Positions 20,747 through 61,577 of a stretch of 64,000 nt of DNA are shown in pieces. The stretch comes from an uncultured Spirochaetia bacterium (lineage in GTDB: Bacteria; Spirochaetota; Spirochaetia; CAZBHR01). How positions within the stretch are numbered: the first letter of the stretch is position 1; each line of letters starts with the position of its first letter. The notes below the pieces were generated by a model that did not search any database, was not told the origin of the DNA, and saw only the letters and a program-made list of their open reading frames with translations. Position numbers and translations under genes: made by a program. The stretch lies in assembly GCA_964492025.1 (NCBI GenBank), contig CAZBHR010000002.1, positions 106,568 through 170,567 of the forward strand, in the 5' to 3' direction.

Positions 20747-20754
20747 TTAAAGAG

Positions 20755-20784: not shown

Positions 20785-20807
20785 TCCCATAGAGTATACT
20801 TGCTCCT

Positions 20808-33860: not shown

Positions 33861-33914
33861 TGGTTACTTAGATATGGGGCTCCTCTTCTGAGGAGCCCCA
33901 GTTATTTTACAGAA

Positions 33915-38023: not shown

Positions 38024-39593
38024 GGTACCTCTTTGGGGAAACTCCCTCGTATTTTTTAAAACTGTGGCTAAAGTAATATACGTCACTATATCCACACTTT
38101 TCTGCAATCTCAATAATTCGTTGTGGTGTCCGTGCAAGGAGCTCTTTTGCCTTTTCTATTCTAATTTGCGTAAGGTGTTTTACAAAGGTCATATTCTGCT
38201 GCTTAAAGAGTAGGCTCAGGTATGATTGACTAATCTCTAGGGTATCAGAAATATTAACCATAGCAAGTTTTGGGTTTGCATACTCCATTGTCATAAGGTT
38301 AAGGGCTTTTTTGAAAAGTGCTTCTGCTCTAGAGACGTTGTTTTCTAGGTTCGCCTCACGTATCTGAATAATTCTTTTAAGTCCCCAGTTGAGAGCCTCT
38401 TCTACTCCTTGAAACTGATTAAGCATCTGTAGTGGAGATATTTCCTGCCCGCCCAGAGAGCTTATCCCTAAAGACTCTTCTACAGAAGTTACAATATGAG
38501 CAAGATGAATAAGAAAGTTTTGAAAAGAGAGTTTCGTCATTTTTTTTGTGACTAAGAGATCATTGAGGCCCTTGAATGCTACTGATACCTCTTCTAAGGT
38601 TCCCATTTTGGAGAGGTACTCAAGATTTTGTAGATCCCCTGAAGGAATAACAAAGGTATCTTGTGATGGTTTTTGAAGCTGATGTATGTATACAATATCA
38701 CTGGGACCCAAGTACGATGCATGGTGGAGAGCTCGGTTTGTCTCCTCGTATGGGGTGCTAATATCTAAAATTGAGTGGTACGGGTTACTTACTCCCAGAT
38801 GAATATTTGTAGATAAAACCTTTTCTGATACCTTAATCATTTCAAAAAATATGGTATCCATTCTTTTTGAAAACGTTTCATCATCAATCTGTATTATACA
38901 AAGAATGGACCCCGCAAATTGCAAACTGTGAAATGTTACATTGTGTCGCTCCAGTGTTTTCTCAATAAGTGATCGAAGAGAAATTTTCTGTTTTTCATGC
39001 TCAAGAATGGAAGACTTTCCCTTAGGTATATCAGTTTTCACTTGAACCAGAATATAATCACCATGAACGGTTATACCTATGGGCTCTGGTTGTTGTGACT
39101 TTTTCTCTGAAAAGGGGTTCATAAGAAGTGATATTAAGTAGTTCTCTGTGAGAAGAGGAATAGTTGCCTGATACTGGTCCTGTAACTGCTGTATGTTCTT
39201 CTGTTCCTCAGCCTCTTTGTCAAGCTCCTCTTTTATACGTTTAAGGAATTGAGATATGTCATCCGATGTTACGGGTTTGGTAAGGTAACTTATTACATTT
39301 AGGTTGATCGCTCTCTGGGCATAGTCAAATTCATCGTACCCAGAGAGAAAGGCAACACGAATAGTGGGATAGTCATGCTGAATAATAGATGCAAGTTCTA
39401 ATCCATCAATGTAGGGCATTTTGATATCTGTAAGTACCACATGGGGAGAGAGTTTTTCTATGAGATCTATAGCGTCGTAGCCATTACTGGCAGTTCCAAC
39501 CACCTCAAAACCCTGCTGTGCAGAGATCTTCTCCGTAACTCTTCCCCGAACCTCATTTTCATCGTCTACAATGATTAGCTTGTATCGTTCCAT
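38001..39593 (-). CDS. Response regulator with receiver and AraC-type HTH domains (YesN-like)
   Basis: Receiver domain begins MERYKLIIVDDENEV; C-terminal AraC helix-turn-helix. Start set to ATG 39593; the 39-aa upstream ORF extension has no receiver-like sequence. Confidence 0.75.
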   Translation of the reverse strand: MERYKLIIVDDENEVRGRVTEKISAQQGFEVVGTASNGYDAIDLIEKLSPHVVLTDIKMPYIDGLELASIIQHDYPTIRVAFLSGYDEFDYAQRAINLNVISYLTKPVTSDDISQFLKRIKEELDKEAEEQKNIQQLQDQYQATIPLLTENYLISLLMNPFSEKKSQQPEPIGITVHGDYILVQVKTDIPKGKSSILEHEKQKISLRSLIEKTLERHNVTFHSLQFAGSILCIIQIDDETFSKRMDTIFFEMIKVSEKVLSTNIHLGVSNPYHSILDISTPYEETNRALHHASYLGPSDIVYIHQLQKPSQDTFVIPSGDLQNLEYLSKMGTLEEVSVAFKGLNDLLVTKKMTKLSFQNFLIHLAHIVTSVEESLGISSLGGQEISPLQMLNQFQGVEEALNWGLKRIIQIREANLENNVSRAEALFKKALNLMTMEYANPKLAMVNISDTLEISQSYLSLLFKQQNMTFVKHLTQIRIEKAKELLARTPQRIIEIAEKCGYSDVYYFSHSFKKYEGVSPKRYREQIQNS

Positions 39594-39602
39594 ATAAAAG
39601 AT

Positions 39603-39611
39603 ATTATACCA
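39603..39611 (-). promoter_or_regulatory. Extended -10 promoter element (TGgTATAAT) just upstream of the regulator ATG
   Basis: On the minus strand, TGGTATAAT is followed by 9 nt and then ATG, with no Shine-Dalgarno sequence in between. This predicts a leaderless or near-leaderless transcript. Confidence 0.3.
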
Positions 39612-39741
39612 CAGCTTCAGAAGTGAAACAATTATATTGTTGAAACTATTTTTTCGTCTGGAGAATGGTGCGTATCTGTCGTTAAATGGACAAAAAAAGG
39701 AGCTACCCAAAGGCAGCTCCTACAATATTACAATGCACCAT

Positions 39742-44068: not shown

Positions 44069-44341
44069 ATGAGTATTACAAACCATATAAAACCTATCTC
44101 ATATATTAAATCGCACGCAGCAGAGGTTCTTCAAGATGTTCACGAGACTAAGGTTCCTTATGTTATCACACAACATGGAGAAGCTAAGGCTGTCCTTATG
44201 GATACCTCTTCGTATGACTCTTTAATGGAGTCAATAAAAGTGCTTAAGCTCCTCCAGCAAGGAGAGAAGGATGTGGTTGAGGAGTGTGTTGTTGCTCAAG
44301 ATACTGTTTTTTCTCAGGTAGAGAAGATTTTTGACATATGA
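44069..44341 (+). CDS. Type II antitoxin, Phd/YefM family
   Basis: 90 aa (MSITNHIKPISYIKSHAAEVLQDVHETKVPYVITQHGEAKAVLMDTSSYDSL...). 4-nt overlap with the downstream toxin gene. GGAGG ribosome-binding site. Confidence 0.6.
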   Translation: MSITNHIKPISYIKSHAAEVLQDVHETKVPYVITQHGEAKAVLMDTSSYDSLMESIKVLKLLQQGEKDVVEECVVAQDTVFSQVEKIFDI

Positions 44342-44664
44342 GTAATGGGTTTTCAGTTCTGTGGACAGGTACAGCTGTAGAGGATTTGAAGTCTCTGTGT
44401 GAGTATCTTGCACAAGACTCAATGAATGTTGCTAGAAAGCAGTATAAAAAAATACGAGATAGAGCTAAAACACTTGAAACATTCCCTTTTGAAGGTCGTG
44501 TTATTCCTGAGTTACAGGTTCACAATATTTATACTTACAGAGAGCTTGTAATTTCTCCATGGAGATTGTTCTATCGTATAAGTAAGCAAGAGGTGTATGT
44601 ACTTGCAATAATAGATAGTAGGCGAGATATCCAAGATCTCCTTTTGGATCGTATTTTACGGTAA
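44338..44664 (+). CDS. Type II toxin, ParE/RelE family
   Basis: 108 aa, C-terminal ...YRELVISPWRLFYRISKQEVYVLAIIDSRRD typical of ParE/RelE. ATGA overlap with the antitoxin gene. Confidence 0.6.
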   Translation: MSNGFSVLWTGTAVEDLKSLCEYLAQDSMNVARKQYKKIRDRAKTLETFPFEGRVIPELQVHNIYTYRELVISPWRLFYRISKQEVYVLAIIDSRRDIQDLLLDRILR

Positions 44665-46944: not shown

Positions 46945-47853
46945 CTATTTCCAAAGTGGAGTGGGGTAGGTCCCATTGTCCGCAAGCTTCTTCATCTCAT
47001 CCTTTGCTAGTTGTAGGTCCTCTTTATAGGTTACTCCAAACCAGTGAGCAGGAGTTGGTAATACCTTCATTTTTGCAACTCCACGCTTAAGAAGTTTATC
47101 TACCTCTTTTGGAAGGAGGTACTCAGATTTTGGATTATCCTTCTCCTCTTCAAGAAAAGGGATAAATCCCTCTTTTAGGTGAGCGAGTACCGCAGGGGAG
47201 AATCCAAAGAAGTTCATAGAGGTAGGCTCTTTTCCTGTAAGCTCAGTTCCTACACCCTCTGGGTTTGTGGTAATAATCTTATCACCCTCATATCCAATCT
47301 TTAAGTTTTCCTCAATATTTTGAAGCCACCCCTCATTGTTTACGGTACAAATTCCACGAGAAACAGTTCCGTGTGTTGAAAGAGTGTTATCTAACTGGTA
47401 ACCCATCATGGCAAATTCAGTACTTGTGACATCAATGCCCTTCAAATACTCTGCCATGGTATGGAAAGGGTGTGCCCCATAAAAATCATCCGCATTGATA
47501 ACAGCAAATGGTGCATCAATTGCATCGGCAGCACATATAATAGTGTGTGCAGTTCCCAAAGGTTTTACCCTATCCTCAGGAAGCTTAATATGATCAGGAA
47601 CGTGACTATCAATCTCCTGATAACAGTACTCCACAGGGATATCACTTGGGATCTGCTCAGCAATAACCTCTTTAAAGTCTTTCTCAATATCCTTTCGAAT
47701 AATAAAAACAACCTTAGAAAATCCCGCTTGAATAGCATCATAAATAGAGTAGTTAATAATAATCTCTCCATTCTGTCCAACTGGAACAATCTGCTTTATT
47801 CCTCCAAATCGGCTTCCCATTCCAGCTGCCATAACTACAAGTATCGGTTTCAT
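46945..47853 (-). CDS. Sugar-phosphate nucleotidyltransferase family protein
   Basis: N-terminus MKPILVVMAAGMGSRFGG is the nucleotide-binding G-rich loop of NTP-transferase domains. Start set to ATG 47853 with AGGAG 7 nt upstream; the ORF track begins at 47880. Confidence 0.6.
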   Translation of the reverse strand: MKPILVVMAAGMGSRFGGIKQIVPVGQNGEIIINYSIYDAIQAGFSKVVFIIRKDIEKDFKEVIAEQIPSDIPVEYCYQEIDSHVPDHIKLPEDRVKPLGTAHTIICAADAIDAPFAVINADDFYGAHPFHTMAEYLKGIDVTSTEFAMMGYQLDNTLSTHGTVSRGICTVNNEGWLQNIEENLKIGYEGDKIITTNPEGVGTELTGKEPTSMNFFGFSPAVLAHLKEGFIPFLEEEKDNPKSEYLLPKEVDKLLKRGVAKMKVLPTPAHWFGVTYKEDLQLAKDEMKKLADNGTYPTPLWK

Positions 47854-48039
47854 AATCATACTCCTAAAATGTGTTAGCATAGTGTAGCAGAACAGCCGTG
47901 TTCCTGCAATGGTAAAGTGAGAGGTTCTTGTTCTTATCTGGAGTAGGAATCTGATACACTGTATGTCAGGTAGAATTTAGTGAGGTCATACAAATAATAT
48001 GTTCATATTTGCTGAAAAAAAGTTCTTTTTTATTCGTGG

Positions 48040-48067
48040 TTGACAATCAACAAATCTATGCTACTAT
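48040..48067 (+). promoter_or_regulatory. Sigma-70-type promoter candidate for the LplABC-like operon
   Basis: TTGACA (48040-48045), 16-nt spacer, TACTAT (48062-48067). Confidence 0.3.
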
Positions 48068-48128
48068 GATATTACATACTTGGCTTTGGAGGTTAATGAA
48101 TGGTTGATCGTATTGTGAGTTGTAGGGG

Positions 48129-49145
48129 GTGGCGATGAAAATATCCAGTCATCTATCTTTAAAATCTTTAAAAAAAAGAAAATTAGTTATGAAGCTTTGG
48201 CGCATCATTTCCCACGTCATTGCCTTATTTTTAGCAAAAGGAAAATTAATTATGAAGCACAAGGCGTTGTACCTTGTCTTCCTTCTTCCTGCGGTAATAA
48301 CTGCGATTCTTTTCCAGTATAGACCTATGGCAGGTGTGATTATGGCCTTCCAAGACTTTGATATAACCGCAGGATCCTATCTGGCATCTCCCTTTATTGG
48401 GTTTGAAAATTTCAAAACCTTTTTTGCAAATCCAAGGTTCTGGCAAGCTTTGAAAAATACCTTAGGCTTAGGTTTATACTCGCTTCTTGTTGTTTTTCCT
48501 CTTCCTATTATTTTTGCATTGGTCTTAAACGAGGTTCGTTTCCCAGGTTTTAAAAGGACAGTTCAAACTATTACCTATCTTCCTCACTTTCTCTCTTGGG
48601 TTGTAGTTGCCACTATGGTATACCGAATTTTAGATCCCGGTGCGGGTGTCATAAATCAGATAAGGATGTTTTTTGGTGCCGAGGCGCTCCCTTTTATGCG
48701 GGAGCCTGAGTTTTTCTGGCACGTTACCATTATTTCTAGTATCTGGAAAGAGATAGGGTGGAGTGCAATTATTTATATTGCTGCAATATCCTCTATTGAC
48801 CCTCAGTTATATGAGGCAGCAGTTATTGATGGTGCAGGACGATTTAGGAGAATGATGAGTATCACCTTACCTTCAATAGCTTCTACCGTTGCGTTGATGT
48901 TTATTCTAAAAATAAGTTCTATTGTGAGCTCTGGTGGGTTATTTGATGCGGTGTTTAACCTAAGTAATCCAATGGTAAATGAACGATCCTATACTTTAGA
49001 GATGTATGCGTATTATGAAGGAATTGTGTCCGCTAAATACTCCTACGCCACGGCAATTACTCTTACCCAGTCTGTAGTTGGACTTATTGTTGTTATTACG
49101 GCAAATAGTATCTATAAGCGAGTCACCCAGAAGTCGGTTTTTTAA
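48129..49145 (+). CDS. ABC transporter permease (LplB-like)
   Basis: 338 aa, polytopic, with EAA-like loop (YEAAVIDGAGRFRRMMSITLP). Start uncertain; downstream in-frame Met codons exist. Confidence 0.65.
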   Translation: MAMKISSHLSLKSLKKRKLVMKLWRIISHVIALFLAKGKLIMKHKALYLVFLLPAVITAILFQYRPMAGVIMAFQDFDITAGSYLASPFIGFENFKTFFANPRFWQALKNTLGLGLYSLLVVFPLPIIFALVLNEVRFPGFKRTVQTITYLPHFLSWVVVATMVYRILDPGAGVINQIRMFFGAEALPFMREPEFFWHVTIISSIWKEIGWSAIIYIAAISSIDPQLYEAAVIDGAGRFRRMMSITLPSIASTVALMFILKISSIVSSGGLFDAVFNLSNPMVNERSYTLEMYAYYEGIVSAKYSYATAITLTQSVVGLIVVITANSIYKRVTQKSVF

Positions 49146-49154
49146 GGAGAATAC

Positions 49155-50024
49155 ATGAAAAAAAGATTAAAAATATTTGATGTTGTAATTATTCTGGTAA
49201 TGATTCTTATATGTATTGCTACCTTATACCCTTTTATCTATGTAGTATCCTACTCACTCAGTGATGGGCATGCTGTTCTTACAAATCCAGTTAAACTCCT
49301 TCCTGTTGAGTTTACCTTTGATAATTATAGGGCTGCTTTTAATAATGATAGTATTACTCGAGCCTTTGGTATCTCCTTTTTAAGAACAGTTCTGGGAACC
49401 CTTTATACACTGGTTGTTACAGGGTTTGCGGCGTACATGCTATCTAAACGACACCTTCCGGGGAATAGATTTTTCTCTTACTTTTTAATTATTCCTATGT
49501 ATCTAAGTGGAGGAATGATTGCTACATACGTGAATATTGCTCACCTAGGATTAATGAATAGTTTTTGGGTGTATATTTTTCCCTATGGATTCCTCGCTTA
49601 CTACATGCTTATTATGCGAACCTTTTTTGCGGGTATTCCAATAAGCTTAGAAGAGTCTGCTCAGCTTGATGGTGCTGGTGATCTCCGTATCTTTTTCCAG
49701 ATTGTAGCACCTTTGTCAAAACCGGTTTTTGCAACCATTACACTATTTGCAGGTGTTCTTCAGTGGAATATGTGGTTTGATGCTATGTTATATGTTATGA
49801 ATTCAAATCTTCACCCCTTACAGCTTGTATTACAGAATGTACTCAAGCAGTCTGCGGGTCTGGCAAATATAAAAGCTGCTGCTCAAGCGGTAGAGATAAA
49901 AACTACCGCCGAGGCAGTTCAGATGGCAACATTGGTAATTGCAACAGTTCCTATTCTAGTTGTATACCCCTTTGTACAACGTTATTTTGTGAAAGGGGTA
50001 ATGATTGGGGCGGTTAAAGCATAA
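49155..50024 (+). CDS. ABC transporter permease (LplC-like)
   Basis: 289 aa, polytopic, EAA loop (EESAQLDGAGDLRIFFQIVAPL). Confidence 0.7.
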   Translation: MKKRLKIFDVVIILVMILICIATLYPFIYVVSYSLSDGHAVLTNPVKLLPVEFTFDNYRAAFNNDSITRAFGISFLRTVLGTLYTLVVTGFAAYMLSKRHLPGNRFFSYFLIIPMYLSGGMIATYVNIAHLGLMNSFWVYIFPYGFLAYYMLIMRTFFAGIPISLEESAQLDGAGDLRIFFQIVAPLSKPVFATITLFAGVLQWNMWFDAMLYVMNSNLHPLQLVLQNVLKQSAGLANIKAAAQAVEIKTTAEAVQMATLVIATVPILVVYPFVQRYFVKGVMIGAVKA

Positions 50025-50053
50025 ATTGGTTTTCATAAACTAAGGAGGAAATT

Positions 50054-51811
50054 ATGAGAAAGTGGAGTTTACTTTTGCTAGCACTACTAGCATCGGTTCT
50101 GGTTATCGCCTGTGGTGGTAAATCATCAGGGGGCCAGAGTGGTATTAGAGCAGAAGGGAGTCAAGAAAAAGATGTTATTGAGTTAACAATATCTATGATT
50201 CCTAAGTATGAATTGGGAGTTATGAAGCAGTTAAATAATCCTGATAATGTTATAGTTCCATACATTGAGGAGCGTTTTGGTATCCGAGTGAAAGAGGTTA
50301 TGAAGACACCTCCAGACATGACTACTACCCAGGCAGTTTCTATGTGGCGAGCTGCAGGTATGGCCCCTGACCTTATGCATAGTGGAGCAGAGGACTTTGG
50401 TAACTTGGTTGGATCTGGAATATTTGCTCCGTTGGATGAGTACTTAGAAGATATGCCAAACTATGAGAAATATCTACCTCGAAAGTATTGGTCTCGAGAG
50501 GTTGGAGAAGATGGAAGTGTGTACGCTTTTTATAACCTTCCAGGACAACCTTGGCCTCAACAGGAGCCACCTTCTGACGATGTAGTTACTCCAAGTATGC
50601 ATGGGCGAGCATTATGGGTAAGAGAGGATGTTCTTGAAGCTATTGGGTACTCCTTTACTCCTGTTATGGAGCTTAAAGCAGAGACCGTTGATAAAGGTAT
50701 TCGTCCTACCGCTGAGCAGTTAGCTATCTCTCCAGCTATAGACACTCCAGAGGACTTTCTTGAGTTCCTTCGAAAAATCAAAGCTGCAGATCTTAAGGCT
50801 ATGGATGGTTCAGATATGATCCCTTTCTCCATGGTGAGTTGGGAGACTTGGCACCTTGGTGTTATGTTTGACTGGGGATATTGGAGAATAAATGAAGAGG
50901 GTGAGGTTGATGGATACCTCGGTCTTCCTGGTGCAAAGGATTATATGGAGTGGCTCTGGACCGCTTATAGTGAAGGGCTTATTGATCCAGACTACCTTGT
51001 ACATAAGGGTGTTCAGTTACAAGAAAAAATTGCAACTGGTAAGATTGCTGCGGGCGAGTATGTACCAGACTCTATCGGAACCTTTGCTCAGTTAGAGAAT
51101 AATGTTCCTGGAGCTATTCGACACTTTATTCCATTTCCAAAGCAATCACCTGACTACGGATTTTATGATACTTACAATCCCCATCCATACTACAGAACTC
51201 TGATAAATAAAGATCTTTCAGAAGAGGCTAAAAGACGAGTAGCAGCCTTTGCAGATTGGCTTTATAGCGATGAGGGAATATCTATTATGGCGTGGGGACC
51301 AGAAGAGGCAGGACTCTATGAGGTTGTGGACGGAAACCGTCGATTCATTGATCCTCAGGTAGAAGAGGCCATTCTTAGTGGAGATATTGAAGGCGAGGGT
51401 GTGTATAAATGGGGACTATTTGATTCCGTACTTCAGTCTCCCGCTGACCCTCTTGCTCTTATGCTAGGACCAGAAGTACTCAATAGATCTGTATTTCATG
51501 ATTACGATAAGACAGGAAACTACATGTCCTTAATTAGTGGTATTGTTGGAAGTGAACCCAGTAATCTACCATTAGGTACTAAACTGCAGGTAGCAAACTC
51601 TGATCAATCTAAACTTGTACAGGGTGTTGCAGACTGGTACTGGGGTATTTTTCCTCAAACCTATCTACCTCAGTTACTCAAATCTAAGGATAAAGCTCAA
51701 TTTGAAGAAAGGTATGCGAACATGATGGATGCTTTCTATCGAGAAACTTCGTATGATAAAGCAAAAGAAAATATGGTAGAATATTTTAAAAAATATCCTC
51801 CAATGTATTAA
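50054..51811 (+). CDS. Large extracellular solute-binding lipoprotein (LplA-like)
   Basis: 585 aa, signal peptide with lipobox VIACGG; unusually long for a binding protein, as in LplA-type oligosaccharide binders. Confidence 0.65.
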   Translation: MRKWSLLLLALLASVLVIACGGKSSGGQSGIRAEGSQEKDVIELTISMIPKYELGVMKQLNNPDNVIVPYIEERFGIRVKEVMKTPPDMTTTQAVSMWRAAGMAPDLMHSGAEDFGNLVGSGIFAPLDEYLEDMPNYEKYLPRKYWSREVGEDGSVYAFYNLPGQPWPQQEPPSDDVVTPSMHGRALWVREDVLEAIGYSFTPVMELKAETVDKGIRPTAEQLAISPAIDTPEDFLEFLRKIKAADLKAMDGSDMIPFSMVSWETWHLGVMFDWGYWRINEEGEVDGYLGLPGAKDYMEWLWTAYSEGLIDPDYLVHKGVQLQEKIATGKIAAGEYVPDSIGTFAQLENNVPGAIRHFIPFPKQSPDYGFYDTYNPHPYYRTLINKDLSEEAKRRVAAFADWLYSDEGISIMAWGPEEAGLYEVVDGNRRFIDPQVEEAILSGDIEGEGVYKWGLFDSVLQSPADPLALMLGPEVLNRSVFHDYDKTGNYMSLISGIVGSEPSNLPLGTKLQVANSDQSKLVQGVADWYWGIFPQTYLPQLLKSKDKAQFEERYANMMDAFYRETSYDKAKENMVEYFKKYPPMY

Positions 51812-51831
51812 TAGGGAAATTATGTTTGTTT

Positions 51832-51854
51832 CGAGGGTGGCTCTGCCACCCTCG
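51832..51854 (+). terminator. Intercistronic stem-loop after the binding-protein gene
   Basis: Perfect 9-bp stem CGAGGGTGG / CCACCCTCG with a 5-nt loop, followed by TTATTGTATT. Lies 20 nt after the stop and upstream of the 978-aa ORF. Confidence 0.45.
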
Positions 51855-51922
51855 TTATTGTATTAGGGTAGAAAAAAGTTTTAACCATATGCTCGGGTGA
51901 GCAGTATGGAAAATAGAGAGGT

Positions 51923-54859
51923 ATGTTATATATGAAAGAGTTATATAGAGTAGGTGAGTGGGATGAGGAAACATTAGGAAATCATCGGCTTCTTATTCAA
52001 GCTGATGACACGCAACCCGCTGTTCATTGTATGGTTTCGTGGAGGCGATCTGATTTTAATCCAGAAAAGAAGGGTGTCTTTATTCGACCCCAGGGAAAGT
52101 CTAATTTTATTAAGAGGGTACATGTTAAGCATATTTCTCAAGAAGAGTTGGATCTTATTTTTGAGCCGGTACAAGGAGTAACCACCTATGAGGTGTATTA
52201 TATGCGATTCGAGGGTACCACCAGAGCCCCCTATTCTGTGATTAATTACCTTCCTGTACAAATATGTGAAGACGCCTCTTGGGTGAGCCAGTATAACAAA
52301 GTTGCCGAATCACTTCCACAAGCAGAGCTTATAGCTTTTGAATCATGTAGTGATTTTCACTCCTATTTTCCTATGGAAATCCCTGCAGGAACAGGAAGTG
52401 TAAAGGAGTTAACCGCTGCTCATGGTGATAAGAATTTTCTGATATTTCCAGAAGTTCGAGAGAACTCCATAAAAATGAGAAAAGACCTTCCTCATCATTG
52501 GGTTGAGCAAGGCCCTTTTGCCTCTCTTTCTTCTGAGGTTTTTCAAGGGGAGTATTACGTATTTCAACTTGGAGTTTTTGCTCATAGAGAGAATATTACG
52601 ATTAATAGTGTCTCTTTCTCCTTTCCTAAAAGCTCTGGAGCTTCTTCCTGGGATGGAACCTGTTTTAACCTTGAGGGTGTAAGTTATCTGGGAGAATCCT
52701 TTACAAAGGATATTATTCTTGTTAAAGGAGAGGTTCAGGCCTTATGGGCAGGGGTGCAAATTCCTGATGATATATCTCCATCAGTATATACTATCGATGT
52801 AACCGTAGAAACTGTTGAGTGTGGATCTGAAACGGTAACCCTTAAGCTAGACTGCCAAGGTAAGAGTATTGTTGATAAGGGTGATGATGACCCATACAGA
52901 TTATCTCGGCTTCGGTGGTTGAACTCTACCATAGGATCTGAAGATGCGGTTATTAGCCCCTATATTCCGGTTACCAGATCGGGAGATACCTTTGCCATAC
53001 TTGGTAGAGATGTAACTCTTGGAAAGAGTGGTCTTCCTCATGCAATCCACAGCTATTACACTCCAGAGGTTACTAGTGTGGGAGATGAAGCATTTCCTAT
53101 ACTGGGAGCACCTATGGAATTCTCCGTATTGGATCAGAGTGCTAGTGAAGTTCTATGGAGTAGGGAGTCTCTCGTTTTTCAAGATACTCCTGAAGCGACC
53201 CAATCTTTTTCTCAGGTAAGTAGTTCTCCATCTTTAGAGCAAAGGCTATCTGCAACAATTGAACCAGATGGGTGCCTAGAGTACTCCATGGTTCTTTCTG
53301 CAAAAGAGAGAACTGAACTCAAGGATGTTAGCCTCTCTCTCCCTTTTCATAAGAATGTACTCAAGTATATGCTTGGTTTAGGTTTTAAGGGTGGAGCTAT
53401 TCAAGATGACTTTGAGTGGAGTTGGAATACAAAAAAGAAAAATCAAGACTCCCTGTGGATTGGTTGTGAAAGGGGAGGTGTTCAGGTTTTCTTGAGCGAT
53501 GACCATTACAACCGTCCCCTTAACACAAACTTTTACCACCTACAGCCGTTGGTAACTCCCGTTTCTTGGGACAACCAGGGTAAAGGACGAATCACGTTTA
53601 AGAAACATACAGACTATGGTATGGTAACCTGTTCTAGTGGGGATCGAGTTATGGAGAAAGGGGAATCTTTGGTATTTAACTTTCGACTGCTCATAACACC
53701 ATTTCGACCAATTGATACGTATAAACAGTGGAACTCTCGGTTTATCCATGAATTTAAGCCACTGGATGAGGTTAAAGAGAGTAGGGCTAACGTAGTAAAC
53801 ATTCACCATGCGAAACCGGTAAACCCCTTTATTAATTACCCATTTTTGCGAACAAAGGAGCTAAAAGAGTATATTGATGAAGCCCATGATATGGATATGC
53901 GGGTACGACTGTATTACACCATTAGAGAGCTTACGAATCACGCTCCAGAACTGTTTGCCCTACGAAGTTTGGGGCATGAAGTGTTCTCTTCTGGTCCTGG
54001 GGGAGGGCAATCTTGGTTACAGGAACACCTGTATGAAGACTATATTGCGGCGTGGCATGTTTTTGAGTACGGCTGTTGTGCAATTGCCAATACAGGGTCT
54101 TCTCGCTGGACCAACTTTTACCTAGAAGGATTAGATTGGCTTACGCGAAAACTTAAGATTGATGGAGTGTATATTGACGACCTAGCATTTGGACGTGGAA
54201 CCATGAAGAGAATGCGACGAGTATTAGACACCCACCGTACAGATGCACTTATAGACCTTCACTCAGCAAATCAGTTTAACGATAAAGATGGATATGCAAA
54301 TAGTATTAACATGTATATGGAAAACTTACCCTATATTGATAGACTCTGGTTTGGTGAATACTTTGAGTATGATAAAGAACCGGAGTATTGGATGACAGAG
54401 GTTGCGGGGATACCCTTTGGCCTTATGGGCGAAATGTTACAAGATGGGGGGCATATATGGCGAGGAATGCTGTACGGTATGACCAGTCGTTATCCTCATG
54501 AAACAGGAGACCCCAGAAGACTCTGGGAAATCTGGAATGACTTTGGAATTTCCGATACAGAGATGTATGGGTACTGGTCTCCAAATATTCCTGTTGTAAC
54601 ACCCTGTGATGATATACTGACCACCGTATACCTGAAACCAGATGGAGCAGGAGCGATGATTGCAGTTGCTAGTTGGAACGATGAAGATGTATCTGTGACC
54701 TTTGACTATGACTGGGAAAAGCTTGGAATGAACCCTGATAAAGTAATAGTACGATCTCCTTATATTGAAAGAGATCAGGAGGAAGCGGAGTATCAGGTAG
54801 GGGAGAGTATTCCTATTAAGAAAAACCAAGGAGCAATACTTATTATCCAGGAGAAGTAA
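51923..54859 (+). CDS. Large cytoplasmic protein of unknown function, possibly glycoside-hydrolase-like
   Basis: 978-aa uninterrupted ORF with no signal peptide, co-oriented with the LplABC-like transporter. Start may be ATG 51923 or 51932. Function not recognisable by eye. Confidence 0.4.
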   Translation: MLYMKELYRVGEWDEETLGNHRLLIQADDTQPAVHCMVSWRRSDFNPEKKGVFIRPQGKSNFIKRVHVKHISQEELDLIFEPVQGVTTYEVYYMRFEGTTRAPYSVINYLPVQICEDASWVSQYNKVAESLPQAELIAFESCSDFHSYFPMEIPAGTGSVKELTAAHGDKNFLIFPEVRENSIKMRKDLPHHWVEQGPFASLSSEVFQGEYYVFQLGVFAHRENITINSVSFSFPKSSGASSWDGTCFNLEGVSYLGESFTKDIILVKGEVQALWAGVQIPDDISPSVYTIDVTVETVECGSETVTLKLDCQGKSIVDKGDDDPYRLSRLRWLNSTIGSEDAVISPYIPVTRSGDTFAILGRDVTLGKSGLPHAIHSYYTPEVTSVGDEAFPILGAPMEFSVLDQSASEVLWSRESLVFQDTPEATQSFSQVSSSPSLEQRLSATIEPDGCLEYSMVLSAKERTELKDVSLSLPFHKNVLKYMLGLGFKGGAIQDDFEWSWNTKKKNQDSLWIGCERGGVQVFLSDDHYNRPLNTNFYHLQPLVTPVSWDNQGKGRITFKKHTDYGMVTCSSGDRVMEKGESLVFNFRLLITPFRPIDTYKQWNSRFIHEFKPLDEVKESRANVVNIHHAKPVNPFINYPFLRTKELKEYIDEAHDMDMRVRLYYTIRELTNHAPELFALRSLGHEVFSSGPGGGQSWLQEHLYEDYIAAWHVFEYGCCAIANTGSSRWTNFYLEGLDWLTRKLKIDGVYIDDLAFGRGTMKRMRRVLDTHRTDALIDLHSANQFNDKDGYANSINMYMENLPYIDRLWFGEYFEYDKEPEYWMTEVAGIPFGLMGEMLQDGGHIWRGMLYGMTSRYPHETGDPRRLWEIWNDFGISDTEMYGYWSPNIPVVTPCDDILTTVYLKPDGAGAMIAVASWNDEDVSVTFDYDWEKLGMNPDKVIVRSPYIERDQEEAEYQVGESIPIKKNQGAILIIQEK

Positions 54860-54866
54860 TGAGTAG

Positions 54867-54898
54867 GGGGAAGGGCATCAAGCTCTTCCCCTTTTTTT
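54867..54898 (+). terminator. Intrinsic terminator
   Basis: Stem GGGGAAGGGC / GCTCTTCCCC (one mismatch) with loop ATCAA, followed by TTTTTTT (54892-54898). Confidence 0.65.
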
Positions 54899-55122
54899 AT
54901 ATTATAACTTGGGAAGAATACTTCTTTGAGGTGGCTTCTCTGGGGATGTTATCCACTCCAGAGTACTGGCTTATTCTTTAGTGGATATTTGGTAGTTCAT
55001 AATTTTAAAGCACTGTTCAGTATTTCAGATTCCTTTCTCAATATTTTCGAGCTAAAATATATTTTATAGTAGAACCAACCATCCTATTTTAGGTTTGTTG
55101 GTATAAATTTGGAGGTGAAGAT

Positions 55123-56157
55123 ATGAAAAAAATATTAGAACTAGGGTTTATACTTCTTATGAGCCTACTCATTTTAGTTTCTTGTGGAGATTCTGAGCAG
55201 GAAGCATCTGGGTCATATGAGAAAACATCAAATACACTGGTAATTTATAGTCCCCATAAGGCGGATATGATAAACCCAATTATCAAAGAATTTCAGGAAA
55301 CTACAGGCATAAAGGTTGAACTTGTTGCAGCAGGGACAGGAGAGCTTTTAAAACGAATCGAATCAGAGTCTAACAATCCCTTAGGTGATATCATGTGGGG
55401 TGGTGGAGCGGAGTCTCTTAACGCTTTTGGAGATTTTTTTACCGCTTACGAAAGCCCAGAGACTGCATATATTGACTCTAGCTTTATTGGGGCCAATCAT
55501 ATTTGGACAGGAACGAGTCCTCTCCCTATGGTAATAATGTATAACAAAAAACTTGTGAACCCAGAAGACGTTCCTCGTGGTTGGGAAGATTTACTTGATT
55601 CTAAATGGACTGGTAAAATTGCATATGCCGATCCTACACGATCAGGCTCATCCTTTACAATTTTAGCAACTATGCTAGAGGCTTTTAAAGATAGGGGGGA
55701 TGATGGTTGGTTTTTTATTAGAGATTTCTATAAAAATCTTGATGGAAAGCTTATTTCAGGATCTTCTGGTGTATACAAGGGTGTTTCTGATGGTGAGTAT
55801 TCTGTGGGATTAACCCTAGAGAAAGCTGCTATGGAGTATGTAAATGCGGGTGCTGATGTGGGTATTGTGTATCCTAAAGAAGGAACATCCTCTGCTCCCG
55901 ATGGGATTGCAATTATAAAGGGTGCTAAGAACATTAATAATGCAAAGGTGTTTTTTGACTTTGTTCTAAAATCAGAGACACAAAAATACGTATATGAAAA
56001 TTTTGCTTCTCGTCCAGTTCGCAATGATATAGAGCTATCTGAAACCATGTTACCAGTTTCAGATATTAAGCTTGTTGATTATGATCTTGAATGGGTTTCC
56101 GCAAACAAAGAGAGCATTGTTAAAAAGTGGAAAGATATTGTTATTGGAAAATATTAA
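55123..56157 (+). CDS. ABC transporter substrate-binding lipoprotein, iron(III)/cluster-D type, substrate unknown
   Basis: 344 aa, lipobox LVSCGD. The N-terminal pattern (LVIYSPH...TGIKVELVAAGTGELLKRI) resembles FbpA/AfuA-type binding proteins. Confidence 0.6.
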   Translation: MKKILELGFILLMSLLILVSCGDSEQEASGSYEKTSNTLVIYSPHKADMINPIIKEFQETTGIKVELVAAGTGELLKRIESESNNPLGDIMWGGGAESLNAFGDFFTAYESPETAYIDSSFIGANHIWTGTSPLPMVIMYNKKLVNPEDVPRGWEDLLDSKWTGKIAYADPTRSGSSFTILATMLEAFKDRGDDGWFFIRDFYKNLDGKLISGSSGVYKGVSDGEYSVGLTLEKAAMEYVNAGADVGIVYPKEGTSSAPDGIAIIKGAKNINNAKVFFDFVLKSETQKYVYENFASRPVRNDIELSETMLPVSDIKLVDYDLEWVSANKESIVKKWKDIVIGKY

Positions 56158-56220
56158 GATGTGTAGGGGAGACCTTTATGGTTCTTCCCTTACTTGAGCA
56201 TATGAGGAGAGTTTAATCAA

Positions 56221-57297
56221 ATGAGTCATATCAAGATAAGAAATGCTGTAAAAAAATATGGTGATTATAAAGCGGTTAATCATGTAAGTGTTGATATAGA
56301 GGAGGGTGAGCTATTTACGCTTCTCGGACCTTCTGGTTGTGGGAAAACAACCCTTTTAAGAATGATTGCTGGATTTAACTCTATCGATGAAGGTGAGATC
56401 CTCCTTGGAGAGTTGTGTTTGAATAATATTCCTGCCCATAAGCGTAATATTGGAATGGTCTTTCAAAACTATGCAATCTTTCCTCATATGTCAGTTTTTA
56501 AAAATGTAGCCTATGGACTTAAGGCTCGAAAGATTGAACGTGACGAAATTGAAAAACGAGTCATTGAAGCTTTGAAAATGGTTCAAATGGAGAGCTTTAA
56601 GGATAGAAGCCCATCTCAACTTAGTGGGGGTCAGCAGCAGAGGATTGCACTTGCTCGAGCAATTGTGATCCATCCTGATGTTCTTTTAATGGATGAACCT
56701 CTGAGTAATCTTGACGCAAAGTTACGAGTACAAATGAGGACTATTATACGAAAGCTTCAAAAGGATTTAAAGATTACGACTGTTTATGTTACCCATGACC
56801 AAGAAGAGGCCCTTGCAATATCCGATCGAATTGCAGTTATGAAGTTGGGAGAAATTCAGCAAATTGGAACTCCTAAGGAAATTTATGCTCATCCTAAGAA
56901 TACATTTATTGGAGATTTTATTGGAACATCAAATTTTCTTATAGGAGAAGTTACGAATACCAAGGAGGGGGCTACTTCTATTAACGTAGAAGGCTGTCCT
57001 ATCACAGTTCCTTTATCATTAAGTAATGCTCAAAAGGTTACTATTGCGGCTCGTCCAGAGGAGATCTGTCTCTCGGATGATGATTCTAAAGGATTACCAG
57101 CGTCTATTGTGATGAGTACCTTTCTTGGAGATTTTATTAATTATGAAGTTCAGCTTTCAAGTGGTAAAACTATTGAAGTGAACGAGTACACAAAGGATGT
57201 TTCTAGAGTCCGTACTGTGGGAGATCGTGTATTTGTGCATTTTGTGTATGAAAAGATTCATATTTATGATGAAGCAGGACAGGAGGTTCTTTTATGA
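56221..57297 (+). CDS. ABC transporter ATP-binding protein (FbpC/PotA-type, with C-terminal regulatory domain)
   Basis: 358 aa with Walker A (GPSGCGKTT), signature (LSGGQQQRI) and Walker B (LLMDEP). Confidence 0.8.
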   Translation: MSHIKIRNAVKKYGDYKAVNHVSVDIEEGELFTLLGPSGCGKTTLLRMIAGFNSIDEGEILLGELCLNNIPAHKRNIGMVFQNYAIFPHMSVFKNVAYGLKARKIERDEIEKRVIEALKMVQMESFKDRSPSQLSGGQQQRIALARAIVIHPDVLLMDEPLSNLDAKLRVQMRTIIRKLQKDLKITTVYVTHDQEEALAISDRIAVMKLGEIQQIGTPKEIYAHPKNTFIGDFIGTSNFLIGEVTNTKEGATSINVEGCPITVPLSLSNAQKVTIAARPEEICLSDDDSKGLPASIVMSTFLGDFINYEVQLSSGKTIEVNEYTKDVSRVRTVGDRVFVHFVYEKIHIYDEAGQEVLL

Positions 57298-58937
57298 AGT
57301 CCTCTCTTAATTTCTGGAGCGTAACTCGTTTTCTTATTTTTCTCTTACTTATCTTATTTTTGGTATATCCTTTTTCTGCTATGGTAAAGGAAAGCTTTAT
57401 CTCTGTTGAAACCGGTAGGTTTTCCTTTAGAAACTTTATCGATTTCTTCACTTATCCCTATTACTACCAAACTTTGAAGAATAGTTTTTCTGTTGTCTTT
57501 GCAGCAACATTTTTTTCAACTCTTATTGGGCTTCCCATGGCTTTCTTTGTTTCTCGATATAATATTCCCGGTAAGTCTACTCTTAATATGATGATTATTC
57601 TTTCATTACTGTCTCCTCCCTTTATAGGAGCGTACTCGTGGATACTTCTCTTGGGGCGAAATGGAATTGTTACAAGACTTTTTTCAAGTTTAGGGATAAC
57701 TTTACCCACAATATACGGGTGGAGTGGGATTGTTCTTGTTTTTACATTAAAATTCTTTCCATATATTTACTTGTTTGTTTCTGGGGCCCTAAAAAATGTA
57801 GATGCTTCTTTAGAAGAAGCTGCGGAAAACTTGGGCGTTTCTGGTATGAAAAAGTTATTTACCGTGACCTTTCCTCTTATTTTGCCTACAATTTTAGCGG
57901 GGGCACTTATGGTGTTTATGTCATCTTTGGCGGATTTCGGTACACCAATGCTCATAGGTGAGGGGTATAAGGTTCTTCCAGTCCTCATTTATGAGGAGTA
58001 CATGAGTGAGATTGGAGGAAATGCTTCAATTGCTAGTATGCTAAGTGTTGTAACTGTTTTTTGTGCTTTAATAGTATTGGCTATTCAAAAAATGGTTATT
58101 GCTAAAAAGTCATATGTTATGAGTGCTCTTAGGCCTCCTCAGATTGTTGAACTGACTCAAGGAAAGCGATTCTTATGTACTCTGTTCTGCTTTGGAATTG
58201 CTGGGATTGCAATGATTCCTCAGATTGTAGTTATTGTAACATCATTTATTAAAACAAGTGGACCTATCTTTGTAAAGGGATTTAGTCTTGACAGTTATCG
58301 AATGATTATTAATAGACTTTCAACAAATATTATTAACACATATCTCTATTCAACCATTGCCATTGTTATTATGGTTGTCTTGGGACTTCTTGTGTCCTAT
58401 TTGATCGTACGTCGAAAATCAAAGGTTAATAATATGTTAGATCTTCTTATAATGTTTCCCTATGTTATTCCTGGTGCTGTTCTTGGAATAACCTTACTTG
58501 TTGCGTTCAACAAAAAGCCACTACTCCTAAGTGGAACTGCAGCAATTATGATTATTGCCTATGTGATACGAAAGCTCCCTTATACTGTTCGATCAAGTAG
58601 TGCAATTTTGTATCAGATAGATTCAAGTATTGAGGAGGCTTCCATAAATCTAGGTGTTTCTCCGATGAAAACCTTTATAAAGGTTACTGCGGTGCTTATG
58701 GCTCCAGGAGTACTCTCTGGAGCTTTATTGAGCTGGATTACCACTATCAATGAGTTAAGCTCTAGTATTATTCTATACACAGGGCGAACAGGAACTATCT
58801 CTGTTGCGATTTACACGGAGGTGGTGCGAGCAAGCTTTGGTACAGCGGCCGCTTTAGCAACAATCCTTACGGTAACAACAGTTATTTCTATGGTTATATT
58901 TAATAAGTGTTCTGGTGGGAAGGGGATAGCCTTGTAG
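57294..58937 (+). CDS. ABC transporter permease, fused two-domain (FbpB-like)
   Basis: 547 aa with two EAA-loop regions (EEAAENLGVSGMKKLFTVTFPL and EEASINLGVSPMKTFIKVT). 4-nt overlap with the ATPase gene. Confidence 0.7.
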   Translation: MKSSLNFWSVTRFLIFLLLILFLVYPFSAMVKESFISVETGRFSFRNFIDFFTYPYYYQTLKNSFSVVFAATFFSTLIGLPMAFFVSRYNIPGKSTLNMMIILSLLSPPFIGAYSWILLLGRNGIVTRLFSSLGITLPTIYGWSGIVLVFTLKFFPYIYLFVSGALKNVDASLEEAAENLGVSGMKKLFTVTFPLILPTILAGALMVFMSSLADFGTPMLIGEGYKVLPVLIYEEYMSEIGGNASIASMLSVVTVFCALIVLAIQKMVIAKKSYVMSALRPPQIVELTQGKRFLCTLFCFGIAGIAMIPQIVVIVTSFIKTSGPIFVKGFSLDSYRMIINRLSTNIINTYLYSTIAIVIMVVLGLLVSYLIVRRKSKVNNMLDLLIMFPYVIPGAVLGITLLVAFNKKPLLLSGTAAIMIIAYVIRKLPYTVRSSSAILYQIDSSIEEASINLGVSPMKTFIKVTAVLMAPGVLSGALLSWITTINELSSSIILYTGRTGTISVAIYTEVVRASFGTAAALATILTVTTVISMVIFNKCSGGKGIAL

Positions 58938-59007
58938 TTTTTATCTTAAGTGGTTTATGATAATCTTATTCCTCCTAGTAGACTTTGTAGAGGAGAGGGA
59001 GTTTTGA

Positions 59008-60750
59008 GTGTTTCAGAGGTCTGCATTTTTTAATAAGTTGCTTCTCTTTTTTATTTTGATAGGGGTGATCCCCTTAGGGGTTCTTACTTTTCTCGGTTAT
59101 GCTCTTTCCACTCAGATTCTTGAGAAATCTTTGTATCAGGAGACAAGTAGTAATCTACGTAAGCTCACTAGCGATATTGATGGTCTCTTTTTTGAGTATT
59201 CAAATCTTATTCAATTGTTATCAGAAGATCCTACACTTAAACAAGTTTTATCAGATGAGATCTCTCTTCAAGAGGCACACAATAGCATATACGAAAAAAT
59301 ATATTTTCTAACATTAAGTAAAACATATGTTTTTCCTCTCTATATTTTAGATGAAGAGGGTTCTGATCTTTTTGGTACGGCTCCCATGGCAAGTAAGCAT
59401 GTTGAGGATTTCTCAGCCAGCTGGGGAATCTTTAAGCAATTAAAAGGAGGAAACGGAGATATATTTATTATCTCTGAGAGCTTTGTAGATACCCAAGGGA
59501 ATAGTATTATTTTTACCATGGGTAAGAGAATTACAGATGGCTCTGGTGAAACACTTGGATATATTTTGGTAAATATAACAAGGGAAGCTGTCATCTCAAT
59601 TATAAACTCTTTTAGTTTAAGTGTAATTGATAATATTATTATTTCGGATCAGTTTTATTATATAGTGCTTAATATTAAAAACTCTAAAGCTGAAGGTTCT
59701 TTTTACCGAGGAGATTTTATCCATAAAGTTGAGACCTCTGATCATGATGAATTTTATTATAAGTATGGAAAGAATTTACTAGCTTACCATAGAAGCCGTA
59801 ATGCGCCTTTTCAAGTTTTTGCTACAATTCCTCTCGAGTCTATTGATAATAACTTAGGGTATATTAAGAAGCTCATTATACTAAGTCTCATTATTAGTGG
59901 GCTTCTCGCAATTTCTGTTTCTTTTTTTATGGCGAGAAATATAGTAAAGCCGATTAAAGTTTTAGTGAGAGGGATGAAAAGAGTAGAGGAGGGTGACTAT
60001 TCACCTACTATGAATCTCCAGCGTAATGATGAAATTGGTCTATTGGAAGATAGCTATAATAATATGGTAATAAAACTCCAGGAGTCTATCGATACCTTAG
60101 TGGCTAAACAGAGGCAGCTTAGGGAGGCCGAGATTAAAATTCTTCAAGCGCAGATAAACCCTCATTTTCTATATAATACGTTAGATGCGGTCAAATGGAT
60201 GGCAAAACTGAAAAAATTTGATGAGATCACCACAATTGTAACTCAGCTTGGAACACTTCTAAGAAATAGTATTGATAATAATAGGGAATTTCTTACGGTT
60301 AGAGAAAATCTAGAGATTGTAAACAGTTATATAAGAATCCAAAGCATCCGGTCAAATGAGCAGTTTTCTGTAGTGTATAAGATAGATGAAGGGGTGTATG
60401 AATACCAAACCCCTAAGCTTATGCTACAGCCACTGGTAGAGAATGCAATTATTCACGGTCTGATGCACGGAGATATTGGTGGAGTGTTGGTTATTGAAGC
60501 ATGGGTAGATTCAAATAATCTTATATTCGTTGTTCAAGATAATGGAGTAGGAATGAGTAGTGATCAGCTACATCAAGTACTGAATCAATCTGGGAGTGAT
60601 CACATAGGTTTATGTAATGTTGATCATAGGATTAAACTCTACTATGGTGTGGAGTATGGGCTTTCTGTTGAAAGTAAAATAGGAGAGGGGACAAGGGTAA
60701 CTATAAAAATTCCAAAAATTCGTCCATCAATATTGGGAGGTGATTCATGA
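59008..60750 (+). CDS. Sensor histidine kinase (YesM-type)
   Basis: 580 aa: two TM helices flanking an extracytoplasmic domain, HAMP, then His-kinase (QINPHFLYNTLDAV) and ATPase domains. Confidence 0.75.
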   Translation: MFQRSAFFNKLLLFFILIGVIPLGVLTFLGYALSTQILEKSLYQETSSNLRKLTSDIDGLFFEYSNLIQLLSEDPTLKQVLSDEISLQEAHNSIYEKIYFLTLSKTYVFPLYILDEEGSDLFGTAPMASKHVEDFSASWGIFKQLKGGNGDIFIISESFVDTQGNSIIFTMGKRITDGSGETLGYILVNITREAVISIINSFSLSVIDNIIISDQFYYIVLNIKNSKAEGSFYRGDFIHKVETSDHDEFYYKYGKNLLAYHRSRNAPFQVFATIPLESIDNNLGYIKKLIILSLIISGLLAISVSFFMARNIVKPIKVLVRGMKRVEEGDYSPTMNLQRNDEIGLLEDSYNNMVIKLQESIDTLVAKQRQLREAEIKILQAQINPHFLYNTLDAVKWMAKLKKFDEITTIVTQLGTLLRNSIDNNREFLTVRENLEIVNSYIRIQSIRSNEQFSVVYKIDEGVYEYQTPKLMLQPLVENAIIHGLMHGDIGGVLVIEAWVDSNNLIFVVQDNGVGMSSDQLHQVLNQSGSDHIGLCNVDHRIKLYYGVEYGLSVESKIGEGTRVTIKIPKIRPSILGGDS

Positions 60751-61577
60751 TCAAAGTACTTATTGTAGAAGATGAATTATATACTCGAAAAGGGCTTATT
60801 GAAACTACCCCATGGGAAGAGTGTTCCTGTACTGTGGTTGGTGAGGCTCGGGATGGAGCTGAGGGGCTTAGAATGATAGAAGAGTTATCACCAGATTTAG
60901 TAATAACTGATGTGAGAATGCCCCGAATGTCTGGAATAGAGATGATCAAATTCTATAATAGTACACTAAAAGGGAGTATGGGTAATAGAGATATTGCCTT
61001 TATTATTCTGTCTGGGCATGAAGATTTTCATTATGCACAAAAAGCAATATCCCTTGGAGTCAAAGAGTATCTTCTGAAACCCATTGACGATAATATTCTT
61101 ATTCAGTCTTTACAGAAAATGAGTACCACACTCTGCCAAACGAAGACTTCTATAGGATATCAGGGAACGTCTTTGTCTCTCCCCGTAAACCTCAAGGCTG
61201 ATTTGTATCGGGAAATTTCTACTCATGAGTATCATCCTGAGTCTATTACTGGTAAGAGTTTATATCTAAAAAAAGCAATAGCCTATATAGAGAGAAATTA
61301 TATTGAAGGTATCTCCATAAAAGATGTTGCACAGTTACTTGCTATTACAGAGAGTTACTTGAGTCGGATTTTTAAGAGTGAAACTAACCACACTTTTTTG
61401 GAATATCTTTCCTGGTATCGTATTAAAAAAGCTTGTGAGCTTATGAAAGAGGAGGATATTCGCATTTATCAGATTGCAGAGCTTGTAGGATTTGAGGACT
61501 CTTGTTATTTTAGTTCGGTATTCAAAAAATACCTAGGAAAAACCCCAACAGAAGTTCGAAATATTATACTTAGCTAA
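60747..61577 (+). CDS. Response regulator with receiver and AraC-type HTH domains (YesN-like)
   Basis: 276 aa, begins MIKVLIVEDELYTRKG; C-terminal AraC helix-turn-helix. 4-nt overlap with the kinase gene. Confidence 0.75.
   Translation: MIKVLIVEDELYTRKGLIETTPWEECSCTVVGEARDGAEGLRMIEELSPDLVITDVRMPRMSGIEMIKFYNSTLKGSMGNRDIAFIILSGHEDFHYAQKAISLGVKEYLLKPIDDNILIQSLQKMSTTLCQTKTSIGYQGTSLSLPVNLKADLYREISTHEYHPESITGKSLYLKKAIAYIERNYIEGISIKDVAQLLAITESYLSRIFKSETNHTFLEYLSWYRIKKACELMKEEDIRIYQIAELVGFEDSCYFSSVFKKYLGKTPTEVRNIILS

Follow-up and report, generated by a model that had tools for sequence, protein, structure and literature searches.

A four-gene unit pairing a CUT1-type importer with a DUF6067 protein in an uncultured Spirochaetia bacterium

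A stretch of 64,000 nucleotides (nt) from an uncultured Spirochaetia bacterium (contig CAZBHR010000002.1; hereafter the window) was analysed for the genes between positions 48,129 and 54,859. Four genes in one direction encode two ATP-binding cassette (ABC) permeases, a substrate-binding lipoprotein and a 975-amino acid (aa) protein of the family DUF6067 (PF19543). The unit is real and we read it as one for import and hydrolysis, in which an ordinary kind of importer is joined to a new member of a family that was already known but has yet to be characterised. We think it probable, though by no means secure, that the unit works by CUT1 import and cytoplasmic cleavage by a retaining DUF6067 glycosidase, with a leaky hairpin between transporter and enzyme genes. 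An oligosaccharide or glycoconjugate would be captured by the lipoprotein on the periplasmic side, passed to the two-permease CUT1 (LplABC-type) importer, driven by an ATPase encoded elsewhere, and cleaved in the cytoplasm by the DUF6067 protein. In the barrel of this protein D749 would serve as nucleophile and E809 as acid/base, in the layout of glycoside hydrolase (GH) families GH66, GH27 and GH36 and not by the substrate-assisted Asp-Glu (DE) mechanism of GH123. A single promoter near 48040 would serve all four genes, and less enzyme than transporter would be made because the hairpin lowers read-through.

The DUF6067 protein and its link to the importer

The product of the last gene was matched to PF19543 at 1206.9 bits (cut-off 22); the alignment runs from residue 12 to residue 976 and covers positions 2-969 of the 969-position model. 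An earlier note on this DNA had described the protein as unassigned and free of recognisable motifs, a description overturned by this match over the whole model. The same note had proposed the protein as a candidate carbohydrate-active enzyme (CAZyme), and here prediction agrees with it: the modelled fold is GH-like and no characterised member of the family was found. A match to a well-characterised family of unrelated function was also looked for; the family obtained was DUF6067. PF19543 was created under that name, which is still used in some NCBI records, and is now titled 'GH123_N, Glycoside hydrolase 123, N-terminal domain'. No functional study of DUF6067, PF19543, IPR045711, GH123_N or DUF5107 was found in the open literature searched. 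A phmmer search of PDB sequences with the protein returned nothing meaningful, and the NCBIfam scan gave no family for the enzyme or for the binding protein.

The family yielded 1423 matches in a word-indexed search and is present in at least 593 species-representative genomes. Clustered at 50% identity, it comprised 653 clusters at E <= 1e-30, 1487 at E <= 1e-10 and 2491 at E <= 1e-3. Its hosts include Bacteroidota, Acidobacteriota, Gemmatimonadota, Spirochaetota and metagenome-assembled genomes (MAGs) labelled Clostridia. Longer forms of 1500-1960 aa (e.g. P0287, P0290, P0291) are multi-domain proteins with the DUF6067 unit at the C-terminal end, and shorter forms of about 840 aa (P0293, P0294) lack the first 140-200 residues.

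The structure prediction that had been proposed for this protein was run on the full-length sequence with AlphaFold2, using a 43-sequence alignment, and produced a confident model (predicted local distance difference test [pLDDT] 90.1, predicted template modelling score [pTM] 0.88). Beta-rich domains extend to about residue 590 of the model, followed by a (beta/alpha)8 barrel at about 600-880, with eight alternating strand-helix units at about 620-880, and a C-terminal beta-sandwich at 895-975. Foldseek was used to compare the model with the PDB. The top matches were entries of the GH36 A-antigen galactosaminidase of Flavonifractor plautii (8x1b, 9awt, 9ayu; E ~1e-16, TM 0.45 on target). Next were GH97 alpha-galactosidase and beta-L-arabinopyranosidase (5e1q, 5xfm), and behind them LacZ, GH31 and GH36 TmGalA; GH36 1zy9 was also among the best matches. 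When the catalytic half was modelled by itself, Foldseek gave GH13, GH36 (the same Flavonifractor enzyme), GH27 alpha-galactosidase A and GH66 3wnk; this list was used as supporting evidence only, since the pLDDT of that model was 70, below that of the full-length model.

Residue conservation was counted over 70 diverse family representatives. D749, at the end of strand 4, was kept in 69 and E809, at the end of strand 6, in 68; H777, Y747, W806, E673 and R755 were as conserved as these two. The strand-4 motif of DUF6067 is IDG(L/V)YIDD, which we take to resemble GIDGLRID of GH13 region II. In barrels of the GH13, GH27, GH36 and GH66 type an Asp that closes strand 4 acts as nucleophile, and the acid/base lies after strand 5 in GH13 and after strand 6 in GH27, GH36 and GH66. 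The barrel, strand-4 Asp, strand-6 carboxylate and C-terminal sandwich of the alpha-amylase/alpha-galactosidase-like enzymes (GH13, 27, 31, 36, 66, 97) are all present in the predicted model; no Pfam or PDB sequence match to these families was obtained. The search for a catalytic acid/base pair, also proposed beforehand, thus ended on D749 and E809 as candidates, near-invariant carboxylates at strand ends. From the model, they would most likely be the nucleophile and the acid/base, respectively, of a retaining double-displacement glycosidase.

Relatives conserve the link of transporter to enzyme: loci L084, L085/86, L087 and L088, which are on other, unrelated contigs, have kept the gene order permease, permease, binding protein (~578 aa), DUF6067. 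The enzymes of these loci are 49-54% identical and their transporter proteins 68-79% identical to those of the window; in L084-L087 the values are 73-76% for permease 1 and 75-79% for permease 2. In L087 and L088 just 2-8 nt separate the binding-protein gene from the DUF6067 gene. A HisKA_3 kinase and a GerE-type regulator lie upstream in loci L084-L088; the window unit is preceded by neither. In L085/86 and L087 the gene right after DUF6067 is a Peptidase_M1 gene; in L084 such a gene is found a few genes further on, and in L088 the position is taken by an unannotated 865-aa gene. Cytoplasmic DUF6067 proteins were also found in L090, behind an AraC-type regulator and a CUT1 system, and in L089, behind DUF5107 and an Opp-type importer.

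The three transporter proteins were searched by tblastn against 80 GTDB DUF6067 loci (41-45% identity) and gave no match, so that the link to this transporter is restricted to the clade to which the window belongs. Most DUF6067 proteins of Bacteroidota, Acidobacteriota and Gemmatimonadota in the sample of alignment A1 carry signal peptides and have no such importer nearby, and SusC/SusD genes adjoin DUF6067 in about 21-24 of the 80 GTDB loci (Bacteroidota). These arrangements are consistent with a localisation logic in which exported enzymes go with outer-membrane uptake and cytoplasmic enzymes with an ABC importer. Binding-protein homologues of 50% identity or less are not beside DUF6067 and sit with YesMN-type regulators, like ordinary LplABC systems.

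Gene layout, transcription and energy supply

Gene coordinates were taken from the open reading frame (ORF) list of the window (Table 1). The two permeases, the 585-aa lipoprotein and the terminator were recovered where the earlier note had placed them, with coordinates, BPD_transp_1 matches, lipobox and a 12-pair stem with T7 in agreement. Two starts were moved, since public gene calls and ribosome-binding-site spacing both favour the downstream codons. For permease 1 the most likely start is ATG 48135, not GTG 48129: public calls of the identical protein give 336 aa, and AGGGGG 5 nt upstream of this ATG is the better ribosome-binding-site fit. The 978-aa ORF reported before does exist at 51923-54859; its start was shifted from ATG 51923 to ATG 51932, as in public calls of the identical protein (975 aa), with GAGAGG 10 nt upstream again fitting better.

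Table 1. Features of the unit, with positions numbered from the first nucleotide of the window.
Feature	Position	Strand	Basis
ORFs as listed	48129-49145, 49155-50024, 50054-51811, 51923-54859	+	ORF list
Sigma-70-like promoter candidate, TTGACA-16-TACTAT, TG upstream	48040..48067	+	consensus match only
ABC permease 1 (LplB/UgpA-like, CUT1), 336 aa	48135..49145	+	BPD_transp_1 E 3e-12; UgpA-type NCBIfam match
ABC permease 2 (LplC/UgpE/MalG-like), 289 aa	49155..50024	+	BPD_transp_1 E 6e-7; GlcU, UgpE, MalG NCBIfam matches
Substrate-binding lipoprotein, 585 aa, divergent family-1 (LplA-like)	50054..51811	+	lipobox VIAC
Intercistronic GC-rich hairpin, 9-10 base pairs (bp), weak T tract	51832..51854	+	9 perfect pairs, 10 with C21-G43
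Second stem-loop, just upstream of ribosome-binding site of DUF6067 gene	51878..51914	+	part of minimum free energy fold of 120-nt spacer
DUF6067 / PF19543 protein, 975 aa, cytoplasmic	51932..54859	+	Pfam 1206.9 bits
Intrinsic terminator ending the unit	54865..54893	+	12-bp stem, then TTTTTTT

The transporter is of the CUT1/LplABC kind, judged from the sequences of its two permeases, both matching BPD_transp_1, and of its large lipoprotein, which is family-1-like. Taken together, the best NCBIfam matches of the permeases were UgpA, UgpE, MalG and GlcTU. The binding protein opens with MRKWSLLLLALLASVLVIAC, a signal peptide with lipobox. It matched SBP_bac_1 weakly (23.2 bits, under the 26-bit cut-off); PF01547 is carried by its homologues at 69-80% identity. 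One homologue is labelled Spirochaetota, and one is named 'putative aldouronate transport system' binding protein by the Joint Genome Institute, an LplA-type name that agrees, like the UgpAE-type permease matches, with the LplABC-type assignment made in the earlier note. The binding-protein family is very small (35 clusters in a word-indexed search of 5.8 billion). The DUF6067 protein has no hydrophobic N-terminus and no signal peptide, as the note had it. The identical locus is also present on metagenome contigs, GCA_019826165.1 among them. A neighbouring H+/Na+-pyrophosphatase shares ~70% identity with proteins named from Spirochaetales, Spirochaetaceae, Sediminispirochaeta and Oceanispirochaeta, and this, with the Spirochaetota label of the one binding-protein homologue, makes an uncultured, free-living spirochaete the most likely host. 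In such a cell the lipoprotein would lie in the periplasm and the DUF6067 protein in the cytoplasm.

The promoter candidate has 10 of 12 consensus matches, is the top site of the region and lies ~68 nt upstream of ATG 48135. Two weak inverted repeats were all that a repeat search of the promoter region showed, with no clear operator. Positions 47000-56000, scanned with Rfam, gave no riboswitch or known RNA. At the other end of the unit the terminator has a folding energy of -21 kcal/mol (z = -3.8).

The perfect 9-bp hairpin noticed earlier before the large ORF was located 20 nt past the binding-protein gene. It has nine perfect pairs, or ten when C21-G43 is counted, eight of them G-C, and a 3-nt loop. 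Its tail, TTATTGTATT, is an interrupted T tract. The spacer to the DUF6067 gene is 120 nt long and folds better than shuffled controls (z = -3.2). A promoter scan found no promoter-like site between hairpin and DUF6067 gene, the nearest candidate (51753-51782) being upstream of the hairpin; transcription of the enzyme gene must therefore cross the hairpin. GC-rich hairpins with short U tracts also precede the DUF6067 gene in L084 (7653-7724), L085 (9927-10000) and L090 (8907-9000). They are unrelated in sequence to the window hairpin, so that position is kept and sequence is not; L087 and L088 have no such spacer. The hairpin is probably a leaky terminator or 3' stabiliser that sets the transporter:enzyme ratio, and the four genes are probably transcribed together from the promoter near 48040.

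The unit contains no ATPase gene, as had been stated: neither the ORF list nor a Pfam scan showed an ABC_tran gene between 47881 and 54893. CUT1 importers are known to draw on a shared MsmX/MsiK-type ATPase whose gene lies elsewhere. The window has another CUT1 operon for sugar (16423-21866, + strand), which encodes a binding protein, two permeases, a GH4 enzyme and a LacI regulator. It likewise has no ATPase gene (16423-19405, then the GH4 and LacI genes) and therefore fits a shared MsmX/MsiK-type ATPase elsewhere in the genome. By analogy, it is plausible that the transporter of the unit borrows such an ATPase.

Directly downstream of the unit (55123-61577, + strand) are the genes of a complete ABC transporter of the Fe3+/aminoethylphosphonate type, namely a binding protein, a TOBE-domain ATPase and a fused double permease; after them come a YesM-like kinase and a YesN-like AraC-type response regulator. 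The sole TOBE-type ATPase of the window (56221-57297) lies inside this operon. It was set aside as energiser of the unit, since the operon around it is complete and serves another type of transporter, and from this gene context the role appears unlikely. YesMN-type regulator pairs usually adjoin LplABC-type transporters; by that analogy the downstream YesMN-like pair, 4 kb off and behind the other ABC transporter, may control the unit.

Catalysis, substrate and transcription: alternatives

The current Pfam name, GH123_N, implies a true GH123-type beta-N-acetylgalactosaminidase/hexosaminidase with substrate-assisted catalysis by the pair D749-D750, which we consider very improbable. D749-D750 is invariant in the window's subfamily and is reminiscent of two known pairs, DE in GH123/GH20 and DD in GH84; in the 70 representatives, however, the position after D749 is Gly in 36 and Asp in 31, and a DE pair is not conserved. 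A GH84/GH123-like 'DD pair' was rejected on the same count of Gly in this broader alignment. The whole-family profile does match all GH123-like PDB entries (5l7r, 5fqe, 8k2j) with E around 1e-4 (1.5e-4 to 8e-3), but the match spans just ~50 residues of one beta-sandwich (query 293-349); the match to PF22680 was weak (E 0.012). The catalytic-half profile matched nothing in the PDB and no GH123 chain, and no GH123 entry was among the 50 listed Foldseek matches of either the full-length or the catalytic-half model. GH123-defining features were tested as described (PMC11087588). DUF4091 proteins conserve a consecutive Asp-Glu pair at 94% (PMC11087588), and PF13320/DUF4091 was undetected at E <= 10 in any third of the window protein. 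Because DUF4091, the DE pair and the GH123 fold are absent and the match is confined to ~50 residues, the GH123 name reflects one accessory domain rather than the machinery of catalysis, and for the catalytic half the label lacks support. The only published relative, the deep-sea metagenome protein DSSM_1 (BLASTP 33% identity, E 2e-62, over window residues 4-341), had been retrieved by domain search by Sumida et al. (2024, Nat Commun 15:3543; PMC11087588) and was excluded there, having neither DE motif nor DUF4091. Its AlphaFold2 model was described as five domains, of which domain 2 alone is like the GH123 N-domain, with a barrel resembling GH66 3WNM (PMC11087588). That description independently reaches the same view of the GH123 label as this analysis. 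DSSM_1 gives no function, since it was recorded as 'not assigned, not tested' (PMC11087588).

The retaining double-displacement glycosidase that we favour leaves room for a narrower proposal on its substrate, namely that DUF6067 acts in a glycopeptide or peptide-linked glycan pathway, removing sugar from peptides handled by M1 and DUF5107 proteins, with the transporter importing glycopeptides. This proposal refines the favoured explanation and is compatible with it; we think it unlikely all the same. The strongest genomic clue to the substrate is DUF5107, usually fused to tetratricopeptide repeats (TPR), which neighbours DUF6067 in 32 of the 80 loci and also in L084 and L089. The loci concerned are from several phyla (Bacteroidota, Acidobacteriota, Gemmatimonadota, and MAGs labelled Eubacteriales or Clostridia), and the known structure of DUF5107 is the structural-genomics entry 5CD6 only. 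Peptidase_M1 follows DUF6067 in the spirochaete-type loci L085 and L087, lies further downstream in L084, and is found two genes downstream in ~15 Flavobacterium loci; yet this link comes from just two independent lineages. Signal-peptide status co-varies among these proteins: DUF6067, DUF5107 and M1 are all exported in Flavobacterium, and DUF6067 and PepN are both without signal peptides in spirochaete-type loci. GH109-like genes lie nearby in 11 loci, and the importer of L089 is of the Opp type; CUT1 binding proteins, however, normally bind sugars, and the window unit has no neighbouring M1 peptidase or DUF5107. It is also conceivable, though improbable in our judgement, that transporter and DUF6067 genes are separate transcription units, with the hairpin a full terminator and DUF6067 expressed alone or hardly at all. 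The stable 10-bp GC stem with its partial T tract, the length of the gap and the occurrence of distant binding-protein homologues without DUF6067 would fit such a division. All close relatives examined, however, share the four-gene order, L087 and L088 have the last two genes abutting, and the stretch from hairpin to gene offers neither a promoter-like site nor an uninterrupted T tract. Since unrelated hairpins hold the same position in L084, L085 and L090, a selected attenuating or stabilising element is suggested rather than an operon boundary.

Import by the CUT1 system, followed by cytoplasmic cleavage, has points to answer as well. No ATPase partner was identified, and the M1 and DUF5107 genes seen in relatives are missing near the window unit. 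The structural matches are modest (TM 0.35-0.55, ~10% identity) and scattered over several GH families. A common pocket for D749 and E809 is predicted from strand topology and conservation, glycosidase activity itself is a prediction for the whole family, and the hairpin might be an efficient terminator.

For the family at large, it may well be, on a balance that we hold to be even, that DUF6067 is a distinct, unnamed retaining Asp/Glu GH family whose substrate is unlike that of GH123; that it acts with DUF5107 and M1 proteins on a glycopeptide-like or unusual alpha-linked glycan; and that the Pfam label misannotates it. If so, 'GH123' in Pfam/InterPro misnames a whole family of at least 653 clusters at 50% identity, and the error is carried into metagenome CAZyme counts such as CAZyOGH. 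The database name implies a beta-N-acetylgalactosaminidase function, against which the present evidence speaks. Both a mechanism and a pair of catalytic residues can be proposed and put to the test. The cytoplasmic, importer-linked spirochaete clade may offer a practical route to the substrate, having a dedicated binding protein whose ligand is directly measurable. CAZyOGH (2026, PMC13355591) takes IPR045711/PF19543 as GH123 signature and therefore probably counts DUF6067 proteins as GH123.

Other loci and comparison with known systems

A conserved DUF6067 locus of ~2.6-20 kb was seen in Flavobacterium, Mucilaginibacter and other Bacteroidota (L029-L082). Its gene order is SusC, SusD, arylsulfotransferase-like propeller, SoxA/TsdA-like cytochrome c, DUF6067, DUF5107-TPR, M1 peptidase and GH109-like oxidoreductase. 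Elsewhere in the window, a 600-aa protein with a full match to the uncharacterised family DUF4838 (339 bits; 14328-16130, - strand) adjoins the CUT1/GH4 sugar locus. Positions 31653-35090 encode a 735-aa protein with BNR/Sortilin-Vps10 repeats and a DUF2264 protein, beside a ribose-type ABC transporter; a second YesMN-like regulator pair (36242-39710) is next to them, and together these genes resemble a further locus for glycan use. Between birA and a BioY-type energy-coupling factor (ECF) biotin transporter lies a PhdYeFM antitoxin / ParE toxin pair (44069-44664, + strand).

Compared with Bacillus subtilis LplABC and other CUT1 systems served by an MsmX-type ATPase, the unit shares the two permeases, the large lipoprotein, the lack of an ATPase gene in the operon and a predicted glycosidase gene alongside. 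It differs in its spirochaete host, in a binding protein so divergent that it falls below the SBP_bac_1 cut-off (35 clusters), and in having its YesMN-type regulator 4 kb downstream, behind another ABC transporter. With GH123 enzymes (NgaP, CpNga123 5FQE, BvGH123 5L7R) the window protein has in common one weakly similar N-terminal-type beta-sandwich and a (beta/alpha)8 barrel; unlike them, it lacks DUF4091/PF13320, the conserved DE pair and an overall fold match, and has an extra ~240-residue beta-domain before the barrel. DSSM_1 belongs to the same family as the window protein but has a signal peptide and 1038 aa, whereas the window protein is predicted to be cytoplasmic and is linked to an ABC importer. 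In the predicted model the closest likeness is to the alpha-glycosidase-type barrels of GH36 FpGalNase (8X1B/9AWT), GH97 (5E1Q, 5XFM), GH66 CITase (3WNK), GH13 and GH27, which share the N-terminal beta domains, barrel and C-terminal sandwich. The conserved strand-4 Asp is common to them, and the strand-6 carboxylate is placed as in GH66, GH27 and GH36. Against this, identity is ~10%, TM is 0.35-0.55, sequence searches gave no match, and the window protein has more domains.

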